A stretch of DNA of 27,732 nucleotides from a virus (IMGVR_UViG_2778261570_000016); one strand, 5' to 3'; shown: positions 2,163 to 7,938, numbered from the stretch's first letter. A program made the numbers and translations. Notes: generated from the sequence alone by a model not told the origin.

Positions 2163-2957
2163 ATGAGCGAGAAATTGAAGATCGTCTATCGCCCGTTACA
2201 AAAACTGTCTCCGTATGCGCACAACGCCAGGACACACAGCCCTGAGCAGGTGGCACAACTGGTAGAAAGCATTAAGCAATTCGGCTGGACCAATCCGGTG
2301 CTGATTGACGAAAAGGGCGAAATTATTGCTGGTCACGGTCGCGTGATGGCGGCTGAGGTGCTCAAAATGGATTCTGTTCCGGTCATTGTTCTGTCTGGCC
2401 TGACGGATGATCAGAAAAAGGCGTACCGCCTGGCAGATAATCGCCTGCCGCTCAACGCTGGCTGGGATGAAGATCTGTTACGGATGGAGCTGTCGGACCT
2501 AATCAATGCTGATTTTGATATCTCCCTGACAGGATTCAGCCCGACAGAAATTGATGAACTGTTGACGGATGTTTTGCCCGGTACAGGAAATAATGAGGAG
2601 GAACCGTACACGACGAAAATTGATACGCCTGTTTATGAGCCGTCAGGCGATAAACCGGATATCAGTGAACTGTACGACGATACGAAAACTCAGGAGCTGG
2701 TCAGCCGGATACGTTCGGCGTCCCTTGAGCCTGATATCGAAAAATTCCTCCTGTGCGCGGCAGAACGTCACACGGTGTTTAATTTCAGCAGAATTGCGGA
2801 CTATTACGCTCACGCCCCCGCTGAAATTCAGAGCCTTTTTGAGGAGTCGGCGCTGGTGATCATTGATTATCAGCAGGCTATTGAAAATGGATTTGTCCGG
2901 ATGACGCAGCGCATGGTGGAGATCATGCATGGCGGGGAGGAGGAGGAATATGCGTGA
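2163..2957 (+). CDS. ParB-like nuclease domain protein
   Basis: N-terminal ParB/sulfiredoxin-type region (KLSPYAHNARTH...GEIIAGHGRVMAA) as found in phage ParB-like nucleases upstream of terminase genes; acidic C-terminal tail. Confidence 0.75.
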   Translation: MSEKLKIVYRPLQKLSPYAHNARTHSPEQVAQLVESIKQFGWTNPVLIDEKGEIIAGHGRVMAAEVLKMDSVPVIVLSGLTDDQKKAYRLADNRLPLNAGWDEDLLRMELSDLINADFDISLTGFSPTEIDELLTDVLPGTGNNEEEPYTTKIDTPVYEPSGDKPDISELYDDTKTQELVSRIRSASLEPDIEKFLLCAAERHTVFNFSRIADYYAHAPAEIQSLFEESALVIIDYQQAIENGFVRMTQRMVEIMHGGEEEEYA

Positions 2958-3882
2958 TGATTTTTGCGCCTTTATTCTGACTCACGGGCGTCCGGACAAA
3001 GTTCTGACTTACCGGACGTTGCGTCGTGCTGGCTATACCGGGAAAGTTTTTATCGTTGTTGATGATGAAGATAAGACACGGCATCAGTACATAGCTGAAT
3101 TTGGTGAACAGGTGCTGGTGTTTTCCAAAGCCGATATAGCCAGTCGTTTTGACGAAGCCGATAATTTCGGTGATCGCCGCTCAATTTTTTACGCCCGTAA
3201 TGCCAGTTTTGACCTGGCAAAAAAGGTCGGGTGTAAATACTTCATTCAGCTCGATGATGATTATCACGAGTTTCAGTTTCGGGTGGATCGCAACTATGAC
3301 CAGGCCTATTTTCCGATAAGGAAACTGGATGCGATCCTTTCTGAAATGCTGGCGTATTACGAATCAATACCTGCTCTTTCCATCGCTATGTCGCAGGGCG
3401 GGGATTTTCTCGGTGACAATGGCGGCCATGCTTCATGGGTGAAACGCAAGGCAATGAACAGCTTTATCTGTTCGGTTGAGCGACCGTTCTCATTCATGGG
3501 GCGCATTAACGAGGATGTGAATACGTACACGAATCTCGGTCGCCGTGGTGAATTGTTTATGACGATCGGTGCTGTCCAGTTAGGGCAGAAACGGACGCAG
3601 AAAAACAGCGGCGGAATGACCGAGCTGTATCTGGATTCCGGAACCTACGTTAAAAGTTTTTACTCCGTCATGTATGCGCCGTCGTGCGTAAAAATCTCAC
3701 TGATGGGTGCCAGCCATAAACGCATTCACCATCAGGTCACCTGGAACAACGCTGCAGTAAAAATCCTTCACGAAAAATACAGGAAGAAGACACCCTGCAT
3801 ATCAATGGGGGTGACAAATGATTCCGTATTCGAAAGTCGAGTCTCTGGCTGCGTGCCGGATGACTGCACAACAAATCGCTGA
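2950..3882 (+). CDS. Hypothetical protein with GT-A-like (nucleotide-sugar transferase-like) motifs; function unknown
   Basis: ATG inside GGAGGAGGAGGAATATG overlapping the ParB stop. Beta-strand/acidic pattern FILTHGRP...FIVVDDEDK...FIQLDDDY resembles the DXD signature of GT-A fold transferases. No transmembrane segment. Functional call is weak. Confidence 0.55.
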   Translation: MRDDFCAFILTHGRPDKVLTYRTLRRAGYTGKVFIVVDDEDKTRHQYIAEFGEQVLVFSKADIASRFDEADNFGDRRSIFYARNASFDLAKKVGCKYFIQLDDDYHEFQFRVDRNYDQAYFPIRKLDAILSEMLAYYESIPALSIAMSQGGDFLGDNGGHASWVKRKAMNSFICSVERPFSFMGRINEDVNTYTNLGRRGELFMTIGAVQLGQKRTQKNSGGMTELYLDSGTYVKSFYSVMYAPSCVKISLMGASHKRIHHQVTWNNAAVKILHEKYRKKTPCISMGVTNDSVFESRVSGCVPDDCTTNR

Positions 3883-4069
3883 CGTTCTGGATGTTGATCT
3901 GAACCGACTGAAAGAAAATCGGGAAGCAATGACAAATTTTTACGCGTCCATCCGTAAGGGCAGAGCGAAAGGTGAAGCCGAGCTACGGGCGGCATTGTTT
4001 AAGCTTGCCAGAAAAGGGGATGCCTTTGCCCTGCGCGAACTACTCAGGGTGGATAAAAATCAGGATTAA
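3818..4069 (+). CDS. Small putative DNA-binding protein (83 aa)
   Basis: GGGGGTGA RBS; helix-turn-helix-like segment (MTAQQIADVLDVDLNRL); overlaps the upstream gene by about 65 nt, so the start could instead be the internal ATG at 3860. Confidence 0.45.
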   Translation: MIPYSKVESLAACRMTAQQIADVLDVDLNRLKENREAMTNFYASIRKGRAKGEAELRAALFKLARKGDAFALRELLRVDKNQD

Positions 4070-4072
4070 CTG

Positions 4073-5164
4073 ATGAGCAGACCGGACTGGGGGGCGTTGC
4101 AGCAGGAGTATATTGCTGAATACACCCGCTCCGGTATATCTCCGGTGGCATGGTGTGAAGCAAGGGGACTGAATTACGCAACAGCCCGTCGTTACATCAA
4201 AAAACCTCCGAAAAATGCGCAGGCAGAATTGCGCAAAACTGCGCAAAAAAGTGCGCAGAAAAAACCTGCGCAGACTGCGCAAAAGCTGAACGGAAAATCT
4301 CAGGAAAAAAAGCCAGTATCCGATGCGTACCTGAATGAGGGCGATGCGGAAGAAATTTCGTTCTGTCCCGATGAATTCGGCATTTCAGACCAGCAGGCGA
4401 AATTCGCAATGCTGGTTGCCCAGGGTAAAAAGCCGACTGAGGCATACCGACTGGCTGGTTATGAAGGGCAAGGTGCGACAGCAAACAGCAACGCCAGCCG
4501 TATGCTTAGAAATGCCAGGGTTTATCGTGCCATCAGTTACTTTCGCAATCAGTACCAGAAACGCTATACCGCAGACCTGGATTTGCTGGTGAGTCAGTTG
4601 ATGGCCATCGTCCAGGCCGACCCCAATCAGTTGGCACAATTTCGCCGTGTTAACTGCCGTTATTGCTGGGGCGAGAATCACCTCTACCAGTGGCGTGATA
4701 TTGCAGAATTCGATAAGGCAGCGGCACAGGCCTCCAGAGATGGCAAACCCGAGCCGGAATATGGAGGCCTCGGCTTTGTTGATAACGCCATACCCAATCC
4801 GGACTGCCCGAAGTGCTGCGGTGAGGGAACGGGACAGCTTTATATGGCTGATACCACTCTGCTTGATGGGGATGCGCGGCAATTATATGCAGGGGCAAAA
4901 CTCGGAAAATTCGGCGTTGAGATCCTGCTGGAGGATAAGGCTGCCGCCCGGCGCGAACTTATCAAGCTGATAATGGCGACGAAAGGAAGTTCTGCTGGTG
5001 GTGCAACTGACAGTCGCAATGATCTGGAGCTTGAAGGACTGAGGCTTCGCAACGAAAAGCTGCGCACTGAGATTGAAAACCTCAAAAAAGGCGTGGGTGG
5101 TGAGAATAACGAAATAATTATCCACAACTCTCTGCCGATGCCGGGAGTGGATAATGTCGATTGA
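4073..5164 (+). CDS. Terminase small subunit
   Basis: N-terminal HTH-like region, then the segment ISDQQAKFAMLVAQGKKPTEAYRLAGYEGQGATANSNASRMLRNARV typical of small terminases, Cys cluster and C-terminal coiled coil; directly upstream of and overlapping the large terminase. Confidence 0.75.
   Translation: MSRPDWGALQQEYIAEYTRSGISPVAWCEARGLNYATARRYIKKPPKNAQAELRKTAQKSAQKKPAQTAQKLNGKSQEKKPVSDAYLNEGDAEEISFCPDEFGISDQQAKFAMLVAQGKKPTEAYRLAGYEGQGATANSNASRMLRNARVYRAISYFRNQYQKRYTADLDLLVSQLMAIVQADPNQLAQFRRVNCRYCWGENHLYQWRDIAEFDKAAAQASRDGKPEPEYGGLGFVDNAIPNPDCPKCCGEGTGQLYMADTTLLDGDARQLYAGAKLGKFGVEILLEDKAAARRELIKLIMATKGSSAGGATDSRNDLELEGLRLRNEKLRTEIENLKKGVGGENNEIIIHNSLPMPGVDNVD
4216..4281. repeat. Six copies of palindromic hexamer TGCGCA spaced 9-15 bp apart inside the small terminase gene
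   Basis: Read directly from sequence: TGCGCA at about 4216, 4230, 4240, 4252, 4267, 4276; encodes an AQK-rich linker. Confidence 0.5.
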
Positions 5165-6482
5165 AATCTACCTCCCAAAACCTCATGAGGGGCAAATAGC
5201 TGCATGGACGGCGGCAATAGAGGAACGCTTCCACGCGGTATGCTGTGGTCGTCGCTGGGGTAAAACGGTGATGCTGGTGAACATCGCTACCAGTTTCGCT
5301 ACGCGGAAATTTGCCATTCCTACCACCGGGCAACTTATCGCGGGTAGGGTGGGGATTTTTACCGCGCAATACCGCCAGTACCAGGAAATCTGGGATGAAA
5401 TTAGCGCCGTTCTGCAACCGCTGATCCTCAGTCAGTCAAAAAATGAAAAGCGCATCATTCTCCGTAATGGGGGGCGCATCGACTTTTGGGTAACGGACAA
5501 TAACAAACTGGCCGGGCGTGGGCGTAAATATCACGCTGTGCTGATTGATGAGGCCGCATTCACTAAATCGCAGGAAATGCTCGAGGAAATCTGGCCCCGC
5601 GCTATACGCCCGACGCTTGTTGATTACCGTGGCTGTGCGTGGGTATTTTCCACACCAAACGGTATCGACGAGAGTAATTTTTTCTACGCGATATGCCACG
5701 ATGAATCCCTGGGATTTGTCATGCACCATGCGCCAACTTCGTCGAATCCGTACATTCCGAAAGAAGAACTGGAGGAAACGGAGAAGAAATCCGATCCGCG
5801 CGTCTGGCAGCAGGAATATCTTGCCGAGTTCGTGGACTGGTCCAAAGATGCGTTACTCGATGTCGATAAGCTGCTGGTGGACGGTCAGCCGATTGAGATG
5901 CCGCCGCACTGCGACATGATTTTCGCAGTGATGGATACGGCGTTGAAAGGCGGAACCGAAAATGATGGTACTGGCGTGGTGTATTTCGCTTATGAGTCAA
6001 CGTATTCGGACGAGCCAAAACTGACGATTATTGACTGGGATGTGACGCAAATTAAAGCGTCATTGCTTCCTGAATATATCCCCGGCGTTTATGACAACCT
6101 CGAGCGCCTCGCGAAATTATGCCGTCCGCGTCTGGGCAGCCAGGGAATTTTTATGGAAGACGCCGCGATGGGGGCAATCCTCAACCAGAAGGCGGAAACC
6201 GAAGGCTGGGATATGACGCCGATTAAATCGGCACTAACCAGCAAGGGCAAAGACGAACGGGCGGTGATGGCATCCAGCTACCACTATCAGGGGATGTGCA
6301 AAATCGTCCGGGAGGCTTACGACAAGACCGTTTCATTCAAACGCACCACCGCAAACCACCTCATAAAACAAATCGCCGGGTTCCACCTGGCAGACAAAGA
6401 TGCGCATAAACGTGCTGATGACCTTTTCGATTGTTACACCTATGGATTGATCATCGCGCACGGTAATTACGCGGAATTGTAA
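5154..6482 (+). CDS. Terminase large subunit
   Basis: Walker A-like CCGRRWGKT and Walker B VLIDEAAF in the N-terminal ATPase half; acidic residues in the C-terminal nuclease half; 442 aa; start overlaps the small terminase stop. Confidence 0.9.
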   Translation: MSIEIYLPKPHEGQIAAWTAAIEERFHAVCCGRRWGKTVMLVNIATSFATRKFAIPTTGQLIAGRVGIFTAQYRQYQEIWDEISAVLQPLILSQSKNEKRIILRNGGRIDFWVTDNNKLAGRGRKYHAVLIDEAAFTKSQEMLEEIWPRAIRPTLVDYRGCAWVFSTPNGIDESNFFYAICHDESLGFVMHHAPTSSNPYIPKEELEETEKKSDPRVWQQEYLAEFVDWSKDALLDVDKLLVDGQPIEMPPHCDMIFAVMDTALKGGTENDGTGVVYFAYESTYSDEPKLTIIDWDVTQIKASLLPEYIPGVYDNLERLAKLCRPRLGSQGIFMEDAAMGAILNQKAETEGWDMTPIKSALTSKGKDERAVMASSYHYQGMCKIVREAYDKTVSFKRTTANHLIKQIAGFHLADKDAHKRADDLFDCYTYGLIIAHGNYAEL

Positions 6483-6501: not shown

Positions 6502-7938
6502 ATGGCTGAGATCGAGATTTCTGTAAATCTCAGTTCTTCGCTGATGCGCATTCTTGAGGCTGAAGAAATTCAGCCGGGAACCGACATTGGCTATGAACTG
6601 TGTAAACTGCTGTGGCAGTACCATCCGCTGGGCGGAAAACTTGTCGAAAAACCCATACTGATGGCGATGTGTAAGCCGCGCCAGTATAACGTGGAGACAG
6701 ACCCTGACGAGAGGGTTGTGAGGCGTTTTCAGGAGGTATGGGAACGCATGAAGGTCAACGAGAAGATTAAAAATCTGTTTTTTCTGTCTCGTTGCTACGG
6801 TGCTGCAGCGATCGGCGTGGGCACCGACAGCGTTCCATGTCGTGAACCGCTTCCGACGTTCGGACTGACAGAAGATGACGTGTATATCAACGCGTGGGAT
6901 CCGTTGAACGCTTCCGGTTCGATGGTGACTGACCAGAACCCCAACAGCCCGTTTTTCCAGGAAGCCAATAAAAAACTGAAGATTGGCGGAAAAGACTGGC
7001 ATCCGTCACGCACACTGAAAATCTTCAACGGCACACCGATTTATCTGGAGTTTCAGAGTTCATCGTTCGGATTCACCGGGCGAAGCGTGTTTCAGCGAGT
7101 TCTTTATTCCCTGAAATCCTATATCAATACGATGGAGGCGAATGATCTCGTCAGCCAGAAGGCAGGCGTACTGGTGGCTAAAGTTGTGCAGAACGGTTCG
7201 AAAATTGACGGGATCATGGCTGCTGCCACGGGGCGTAAAAGGGAAAACGTGAAAGCCGCCAAAAATAAAGGCGTGTTGAGTATTGGAAAAGACGAAGACG
7301 TAAGTTCACTGAACCTGCAAAACATCGATGGGGCGCTGAATACATCCCGTGACAACATCATTGCTGATATTGCCGCCGGGAGTGACGTTCCGGCCATTAT
7401 TATCAAGGAAGAAGCATTCAGTAACGGATTCGGTGAAGGTAAGGAGGACTCGAAAGCTATCAGCCAGTATATCGATGGTGTACGCCAGCAGATTGAACCT
7501 GTGATGGATTATTTCGAACGCCTGGTGCAGTACATCGCCTGGAACGAGGAATTTTATCAGTCGCTGAAAAATGATTACCCGGACATCATAACCGACGACT
7601 ATAAAACCACGTTTTACCAGTGGCGACGTGAATTTACCGCGACGTGGCAGGAGCTGGTGGAGGAGTCGCCGGACAAACGCCGGGAAAGCGACAGTAAAGT
7701 GATTCAACAGGCGATAGCACTTTTCTCTGCCGTGTCGCCACAGGTTGATCCTGAAAACCGCGCCGCCCTTGCTGAATGGCTGGCAAGCCTTGTTAATGCC
7801 ACGCAAACCTATGGCGAAGCTCCACTCATCATTGATGTGGACGCGCTGGCGAATTATGAACCACCGAAGCAGGAGACGCCTGATGGCAATTTCCAGCCGG
7901 GCGGTGAGGAAGAAGAAACGGATCAGGACTCTGTATGA
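6502..7938 (+). CDS. Portal protein
   Basis: 478 aa, immediately after the large terminase and before a MuF-like head morphogenesis gene; acidic C-terminus. Confidence 0.7.
   Translation: MAEIEISVNLSSSLMRILEAEEIQPGTDIGYELCKLLWQYHPLGGKLVEKPILMAMCKPRQYNVETDPDERVVRRFQEVWERMKVNEKIKNLFFLSRCYGAAAIGVGTDSVPCREPLPTFGLTEDDVYINAWDPLNASGSMVTDQNPNSPFFQEANKKLKIGGKDWHPSRTLKIFNGTPIYLEFQSSSFGFTGRSVFQRVLYSLKSYINTMEANDLVSQKAGVLVAKVVQNGSKIDGIMAAATGRKRENVKAAKNKGVLSIGKDEDVSSLNLQNIDGALNTSRDNIIADIAAGSDVPAIIIKEEAFSNGFGEGKEDSKAISQYIDGVRQQIEPVMDYFERLVQYIAWNEEFYQSLKNDYPDIITDDYKTTFYQWRREFTATWQELVEESPDKRRESDSKVIQQAIALFSAVSPQVDPENRAALAEWLASLVNATQTYGEAPLIIDVDALANYEPPKQETPDGNFQPGGEEEETDQDSV

Follow-up and report, generated by a model that had tools for sequence, protein, structure and literature searches.

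Why does the small terminase gene of an E. coli prophage carry six copies of the palindromic hexamer TGCGCA, and does this array take part in DNA packaging or does it only reflect the peptide that it encodes? The question is raised by a 27,732-bp stretch of viral DNA (IMGVR_UViG_2778261570_000016), which over its whole length is referred to here as the window. An E. coli prophage of the Rac-like lambdoid kind, the window shares 99.9% identity with NZ_CP128979 over positions 3700-5300, and its terminase gene region is matched in 906 of 5,426 complete E. coli genomes. The original prediction, made from this one sequence, had proposed the hexamers as a candidate pac site, that is, a site bound by the small terminase. 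Our analysis rests throughout on sequence comparison, and it suggests that the array is probably a pac recognition array like that of phage P1, bound by the terminase's own N-terminal helix-turn-helix (HTH) domain.

The hexamer array within the small terminase gene

The proposed pac recognition array runs from 4216 to 4281 and is assigned to neither strand. Its hexamers are palindromic. Its six copies start at 4216, 4230, 4240, 4252, 4267 and 4276, giving copy-to-copy spacings of 14, 10, 12, 15 and 9 bp, so that the cluster first noticed at about this position, with six copies in about 66 bp and spacings of 9-15 bp, is confirmed to the base. TGCGCA occurs 17 times in the window, six of these being in the array, and the 11 copies elsewhere compare with a shuffle expectation of 12.0 +/- 3.5. 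In 300 Markov-1 simulations of the window the count per 66-bp span never exceeded two, and a Poisson estimate for a cluster such as this is about 1e-9 per window. The repeated element is a 6-bp palindrome and not a single asymmetric site of about 22 bp. The copies sit among runs of A on the coding strand, and their flanks follow the consensus aaA(c)TGCGCA(r)Aa across relatives.

The array corresponds to codons 48-70 of an open reading frame (ORF) at 4073-5164, whose product of 363 amino acids (aa) matches Pfam Terminase_2 (PF03592) with 36 bits, above the curated cutoff of 26.1, and phrog_51 'terminase small subunit' at 2.4e-69; the gene lies upstream of those for the large terminase and the portal. 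Because the profile matches and the structural models indicate two folded regions, the protein can be described, as modelled, as a canonical small terminase to whose N-terminus an extra HTH and a linker have been added. The N-terminal module, which we propose as the reader of the hexamers, spans aa 1-45 (4073..4207, plus strand) and includes the putative recognition helix YATARRYIKK at aa 35-44 (nt 4175-4204, plus strand). The linker that follows comprises aa 46-100 (4208..4372, plus strand), with the peptide NAQAELRKTAQKSAQKKPAQTAQK; most of it has low values of the predicted local distance difference test (pLDDT), and its coding segment hosts the array. The remainder (4373..5164, plus strand) is the canonical small-terminase body recognized by PF03592 and phrog_51, with a Terminase_2-type HTH at about aa 105-165 and with oligomerisation and C-terminal parts.

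AlphaFold2 predicts helices at residues 6-20, 24-30 and from 35 to at least 38 of the N-terminal module, with pLDDT of about 87-89 for aa 11-40. In the full-length model pLDDT is below 50 at aa 49-94 and 70-84 at aa 100-160. This model is poor overall (mean pLDDT 46.7) because the homologue search gave only truncated proteins when the 48-aa module was the query and only close relatives when the full protein was used. The top matches in a fold search with the N-terminal module were all HTH DNA-binding domains, none of them significant, and a sequence search of solved structures returned only a weak match, of aa 108-165 to the Pam5 small terminase HTH (E 0.11). The array had originally been placed in the linker-coding part of the gene, and this was correct, since it lies in the segment of low pLDDT between the two folded HTH regions. 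Runs of A5-A9 are present in the linker DNA at 4205-4310 of the window, and many database copies of the gene (seven examples) are truncated by frameshifts in the array region, with the hexamers retained.

Five of the copies are read as xxT-GCG-CAx, encoding N, T, S, P or T followed by A-Q, and copy 2 is read as tTG-CGC-Aaa (L-R-K). When aa 44-75 were recoded synonymously with the codon usage of the window, the mean was about 0.56 copies; none of 100,000 recodings reached six copies and two reached five. Permutation of synonymous codons within the gene never gave more than five copies, and it gave five in a single one of 20,000 trials. In a set of 42 distinct close relatives, identity to the window is 95% at motif positions versus 87% at other linker positions, and the first codon of copy 2 is ATG, TTG or GTG (M, L or V), with the TG constant. 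Every reading frame is used for TGCGCA in a set of 148 non-redundant gene heads (523, 126 and 28 times), and the linker peptide of relatives differs (AQ, LR, CA; AN, NSQ, CE; DH) and can be as odd as NCETNCESNCET, with the hexamer retained. Because recoding never gives six copies, copy 2 is off-frame and three frames are used in relatives, we conclude from these comparisons that selection on the repeat acts at the DNA level, with the AQK-rich peptide as a consequence. The alternative offered with the original prediction, that the repeat is a by-product of this peptide, is rejected on the same grounds, and homologous small terminase genes do, as the prediction would have it, keep the DNA repeat where the linker diverges.

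Conservation of the array and its pairing with the recognition helix

Each of 80 close relatives found in viral contigs, with proteins 84-98% identical, carries 4-6 copies of the hexamer, and thus no near-identical small terminase gene lacking the array was found among them. Some of these arrays differ from one another by unit-sized indels. In species-level relatives, at down to 34-47% protein identity, an array is found at the same site. In Klebsiella phage ST16-OXA48phi5.1, at 38% identity, TGCGCA is present six times in the same place, read as TAQ, TAQ, PAQ, LRT, TAQ and KCAE and therefore in three frames; in E. coli phage PHB10 it is present three times. The arrays of Yersinia phage vB_YenM_29.18 and Providencia phage PSTCR3 consist instead of TGCGAA, in 4-5 copies that include the palindrome TGCGAATTCGCA.

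The species-level set consists of 80 genomic loci coding for the N-terminal module, drawn from Enterobacterales and one Vibrio, and every intact gene among them has an array in its linker DNA. At the 75 loci whose helix has arginine at residue 39 (R class, as opposed to a K class with lysine), TGCGCA occurs at about 0.01 per 50 bp over -1500 to +1500 versus 4.7 copies per locus at +100..+250. Arrays hold 3-10 copies, with a mode of 5, and in 71 of 71 the first copy starts within gene nt 131-150, so that 0-6 codons separate it from the recognition helix. The terminase bodies to which module and array are joined differ, with lengths of about 199, 235-260, 270-290, 320-340 and 363 aa. In a profile search, 264 of 1.84 billion 50%-identity representatives matched the module, nearly always at their N-terminus, and 77 of 120 sampled viral-contig loci with three closely spaced TGCGCA copies adjoin a match to the module. 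By these comparisons the array is tied to the N-terminal HTH module and not to the terminase body. There are also triplet arrays of TGCGCA away from the module (seven loci), some of them beside other small ORFs or intergenic, which may belong to other terminase or regulator families.

The class of the recognition helix was compared with the class of the hexamer over 104 distinct 46-aa module sequences. The helix A-R-R-[YH], together with one A-H-R-Y, goes with TGCGCA (78 sequences); A-K-R-Y goes with TGCGAA/TTCGCA (19 of 19), and A-R-T-R with GATCAT (4 of 4). The other three sequences have A-R-R-Y and no array, two of them being visibly truncated. Among these 104 sequences, then, the recognition helix is a predictor of the hexamer. 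The R and K classes are interleaved and do not form two clades: four K-class sequences, on three helix 1-2 backbones, have an R-class neighbour that is identical over aa 1-33 (Providencia PSTCR3 versus P. rustigianii, for example), and 5 of 15 K-class sequences are nearer to an R-class than to any other K-class sequence. The pairing extends to remote backbones. Aeromonas phiARM81mr has ARRYL with seven TGCGCA copies, and Pasteurella Pmp11 and its relatives (L250, L432-L440) have AKRY with 8-10 copies of TGCGAA and a linker, NCETNCESNCETAK, that is rich in cysteine because TGCGAA is read there as TGC-GAA.

In the class of bodies of about 330 aa, a second cluster of 2-3 hexamers is located at gene nt 348-398, inside the region coding for the folded canonical HTH (L083:1860-1903, for example). 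R-class genes have SVAQAIAQQQKASIVRTL (SVAQAIAQ) here, with three TGCGCA copies, and K-class genes with the same body have SVANEIANQQK, with TGCGAA at homologous codons. Since the second cluster switches with class at homologous codons, the DNA motif seems to impose Q/N substitutions even in a folded domain. One gene is mixed: that of Escherichia sp. ESNIH1 (L123, gene nt 285-435) combines an R-class helix and a first array of TGCGCA with two second-cluster hexamers that read TGCGAA, the corresponding positions of its close relative L136 being TGCGCA. This gene may have arisen by recombination or be an intermediate in switching.

The N-terminal module also heads the small terminase of Shiga-toxin phages (Sepvirinae), among which 222 phage records match. 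Genes of the GER2 type have the helix SYDTARRYIKL and 5-7 TGCGCA copies, five in GER2 itself, and genes of the 933W type have the helix NYNTARTRIKM and 4-5 copies of YGATCAT with a 12-bp period, read as IDH/TDH. The GER2 and 933W genes (L249:1501-1900 and L373:1201-1600) are about 90% identical at nt 1-86 and again from about nt 266 on, but nt 87-265 cannot be aligned, and this segment is helix 3 plus the array (ARRYIKL and five TGCGCA versus ARTRIKM and four YGATCAT). It looks from this as if recognition helix and array had been exchanged between GER2 and 933W as one cassette. These phages (933W, GER2 and other Sepvirinae) resemble the window in having the same N-terminal module and the same array placement, but their terminase body, of about 270 aa, is different. 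In phage 933W (NC_000924, about 28894-28974; L373:1320-1400) the four YGATCAT copies are Dam sites and come directly after the divergent helix, and their sequence makes them a candidate for a P1-like pac array; no relevant published analysis of 933W pac was found in the literature searched, which did not cover subscription journals.

Taken together, comparison among relatives demonstrates a DNA element that is under selection, is tied to the N-terminal HTH and co-varies with its recognition helix.

Known packaging systems and competing explanations

In the pacA gene of phage P1 (L167:4530-5723) the hexamer TGATCA is found at gene nt 194, 201, 213 and 228 (cluster 194-233) and again at about nt 324-352, and both the annotated cleavage sites (about nt 275-285) and a site for integration host factor (IHF) lie between the hexamer clusters. 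The PacA/PacB pacase binds the P1 hexamers as pac elements, and Dam methylation controls them (PMC10028697, citing Sternberg & Coulby 1987/88 and Skorupski 1994), and they have been recoded for phage-based delivery vectors (PMC10028697). When a profile of 14 diverse modules was compared with PacA 1-133 by hhalign, PacA aa 2-41 aligned over 40 ungapped columns with a probability of 90.8% and a pairwise E of 1.2e-6, the aligned features being W, F/Y, G, Y/W, LN and TARRY[LI][RK]. This alignment, with 23% identity over 40 residues, is the basis of the homology, and plain BLASTP finds only TARRY (E 0.3).

P1 pac and the array in the window have several features in common. Both are inside a small-terminase-type gene, just 3' of the codons for an N-terminal HTH, and the recognition subunit in each has a PacA-related HTH. 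Both consist of palindromic TG..CA hexamers at irregular spacings of about 7-15 bp, and the codon geometry is alike, P1 having mostly xxT-GAT-CAx (X-D-H/Q) where the window has xxT-GCG-CAx (X-A-Q). The 933W-type arrays, which contain GATC, are in their sequence a bridge between P1 and the TGCGCA arrays. The two systems differ in that P1 has TGATCA/G with GATC and Dam control, an IHF site between its clusters, a PacA body and a mapped cleavage position. What would be new here relative to P1 pac is therefore a different hexamer with no Dam site, no IHF consensus, a single cluster, and an HTH fused to a Terminase_2 body.

In cosB of phage lambda, the elements R1-R3 are bound by the N-terminal winged HTH of gpNu1, and there is in addition an IHF site, I1. 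As in the arrangement proposed here, a small terminase uses its N-terminal HTH to read several short repeats and so places the large subunit to cut nearby, but the similarity is one of logic alone: cosB lies outside the Nu1 coding sequence and consists of three elements of about 16 bp, with IHF and cos cutting, while the sites in the window are intragenic and have no IHF consensus. The pac site of P22 is a single asymmetric 22-bp sequence, and sequence-specific binding by the small terminases of P22, Sf6, SF6 and SPP1 is weak or undetectable in vitro, according to a 2022 review (PMC9611059). The pac sites of P22 and SPP1/SF6 are like the array in being in or at the small terminase gene, and SPP1 has multiple contact points (PMC9611059); the window is unlike them in that it has an additional HTH dedicated to the task and a clear repeated motif whose specificity co-varies.

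The association with the module, the co-variation of helix and hexamer and the relatedness to PacA support, as far as such analysis reaches, the original proposal of a pac or small-terminase binding site. A possible mechanism would be that several N-terminal HTH domains of one small-terminase oligomer, flexibly tethered, bind the hexamers just 3' of the HTH-coding segment, and that this complex marks phage concatemers and recruits the large terminase. The large terminase would then make its first cut nearby, downstream of the array by analogy with P1, and headful packaging would start. For physical binding, engagement by an oligomer, the position of cleavage and the headful mechanism, this is what we infer. 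The linker peptide, with its AQ and LR repeats, would be dictated by the sites because these sit in linker-coding DNA. Helix codons and array lie within about 100-200 bp, so that the pair could be inherited and exchanged as one specificity cassette, and such tight linkage (<200 bp) would keep reader and target together through recombination.

A broader proposal, to which we give even chances, is that this exchangeable specificity cassette, a helix of about 10 codons plus 3-10 cognate hexamers within about 200 bp, operates in prophages of Enterobacterales, Pasteurellaceae, Aeromonas and Vibrio, Shiga-toxin phages among them, and that P1 has a distantly related version. It would have at least three specificities (TGCGCA, TGCGAA and GATCAT) that can be swapped by recombination, with a nearly one-to-one rule between residue 39 (R/K) and base 5 of the hexamer (C/A), and its sites would set the sequence of the linker peptide and, beyond it, some residues in a folded domain.

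A number of observations weigh against a P1-like pac array. P1 has clusters of four and three hexamers that flank the cut, and it needs both, whereas the window has one cluster of six, and no second exact cluster was found in gene nt 285-480 of the window or of its body type (L087-L090). The IHF consensus WATCAANNNNTTR has no match in the whole window, in a scan for the consensus only. As TGCGCA contains neither GATC (Dam) nor CCWGG (Dcm), control by methylation in the manner of P1 cannot apply. Some copies in close relatives have decayed (TGTGCA, TGCACA), and many of the carriers are prophages. PacA has an A-R-R-Y helix yet TGATCA sites, and so no simple one-residue code applies to the superfamily as a whole. 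The helix codons for X-A-K (gene nt 109-117) themselves spell TGCGAA in 12 of 20 distinct K-class genes, so the R/K co-variation at residue 39 could be driven in part by the DNA motif, and the helix-coding DNA of K-class genes may be an extra site; the other 8 of 20 keep K without TGCGAA in these codons. The large terminase has no well-characterised close relative from which a packaging strategy could be inferred, and headful packaging is therefore not independently supported. No paper on TGCGCA or TGCGAA arrays in terminase genes, pac sites or packaging was found, subscription journals being outside the coverage of the search, and neither mapped termini nor binding assays were found for the prophage or for any relative that bears the module.

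Two further candidates were set aside. One is methylation control of the P1 kind, the methyltransferase of the near-identical prophage being of the N6_N4 type. The other is the end of the phi367 record inside its small terminase gene, which was not accepted as evidence of a terminus in view of the record's stated circular-permutation convention.

Among the other explanations the one that survives best, though we consider it improbable, is that the array is an operator through which the N-terminal HTH binds its own coding sequence and throttles transcription or translation of the terminase operon, with no role in packaging. The comparative evidence that links the array to the HTH fits this as well, as do the intragenic positions of the sites, 140-210 nt from the start codon. 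However, what P1 has in the homologous arrangement is its pac site, with the cut mapped between hexamer clusters (PMC10028697), the module is fused to terminase bodies only, almost always at the N-terminus, and there is no promoter-like site in 3900-4600.

Slightly less credible again is that the hexamers are sites for another factor, either a host protein or the product of a small HTH-like ORF at 3818-4069. This ORF, of 83 aa, is directly upstream of the small terminase gene, overlaps the end of a glycosyltransferase gene and is itself small-terminase-like, matching part of the small-terminase family phrog_309 at 2.5e-22. A homologue of it occurs only with the window type of terminase body, at 79 of 80 close loci but at only 5 of 89 diverse array-bearing loci, all of which have the N-terminal module. 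A host factor, for its part, fails to explain how the hexamer class switches with the terminase helix within one host genus.

We think it very unlikely that the array acts through nucleic-acid structure, as mRNA hairpins that regulate translation or as terminators on the antisense strand. Plus-strand RNA of 4200-4300 does fold at -33.9 kcal/mol (z = -4.35), and the minus strand has three terminator-like hairpins versus 1.0 +/- 1.1 expected, but six copies of a G+C-rich palindrome account for the stability of the RNA fold. TGCGAA and GATCAT arrays at the same position fold no better than shuffles (z = +1.49, -1.34 and -1.49), so that structure is not the conserved property, and both the RNA fold and the minus-strand hairpins are probably by-products of the palindromic motif.

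Least likely of all is that the array has no function and is a low-complexity linker produced by replication slippage or by selection for an AQK-rich peptide, for although Tandem Repeats Finder reports weak 10-, 12- and 36-bp periodicities and the unit-sized indels among relatives would fit slippage, such periodicities cannot explain a frame-independent and class-specific conservation, with irregular spacing, one copy out of frame, p < 1e-5 on synonymous recoding, the hexamer in three frames across 34-98% identical proteins, odd linker peptides and hexamers that recur in a folded domain with matching Q/N substitutions.

Neighbouring genes and significance

The gene for the large terminase, a nuclease/ATPase, is at 5154..6482 on the plus strand (Pfam Terminase_6N, phrog_2), and its start overlaps the last bases of the small terminase gene. 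Next comes the portal gene at 6502-7938 (Pfam Phage_portal_3, phrog_146), a homologue of which is named 'anti-CBASS protein Acb1 family protein' in RefSeq. Upstream of the packaging genes is a TET-associated-type glycosyltransferase gene at 2929-3882 (PF20691, 1.2e-35), which RefSeq calls 'GREB1-related protein', although the window yielded neither a TET dioxygenase nor a C5-methyltransferase. A gene for a protein with a ParB N-terminal domain, at 2163-2957, is directly upstream of the packaging genes and is annotated as a pseudogene in the near-identical prophage.

Only in a few phages is the pac site defined. The module family described here offers a dedicated HTH, an obvious repeated target and natural specificity variants (TGCGCA, TGCGAA and GATCAT), among them pairs that are identical in helices 1-2 and the clean cassette swap between GER2 and 933W, so that binding, specificity swaps and packaging initiation can be tested directly with simple constructs. 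It also provides a clear case in which a DNA site constrains the amino-acid sequence of the protein that, on our reading, binds it. The element is common, being present in the 906 E. coli genomes already mentioned and, as a related module, in Shiga-toxin phages of the 933W type, and knowledge of packaging signals matters for transduction, for the way in which toxin and resistance genes are mobilised, and for the building or disabling of phage-based delivery vectors. If recognition helix and array do form an exchangeable cassette, pac specificity would be predictable from sequence and could be re-engineered, and it would be possible to predict which phages and satellites cross-package.

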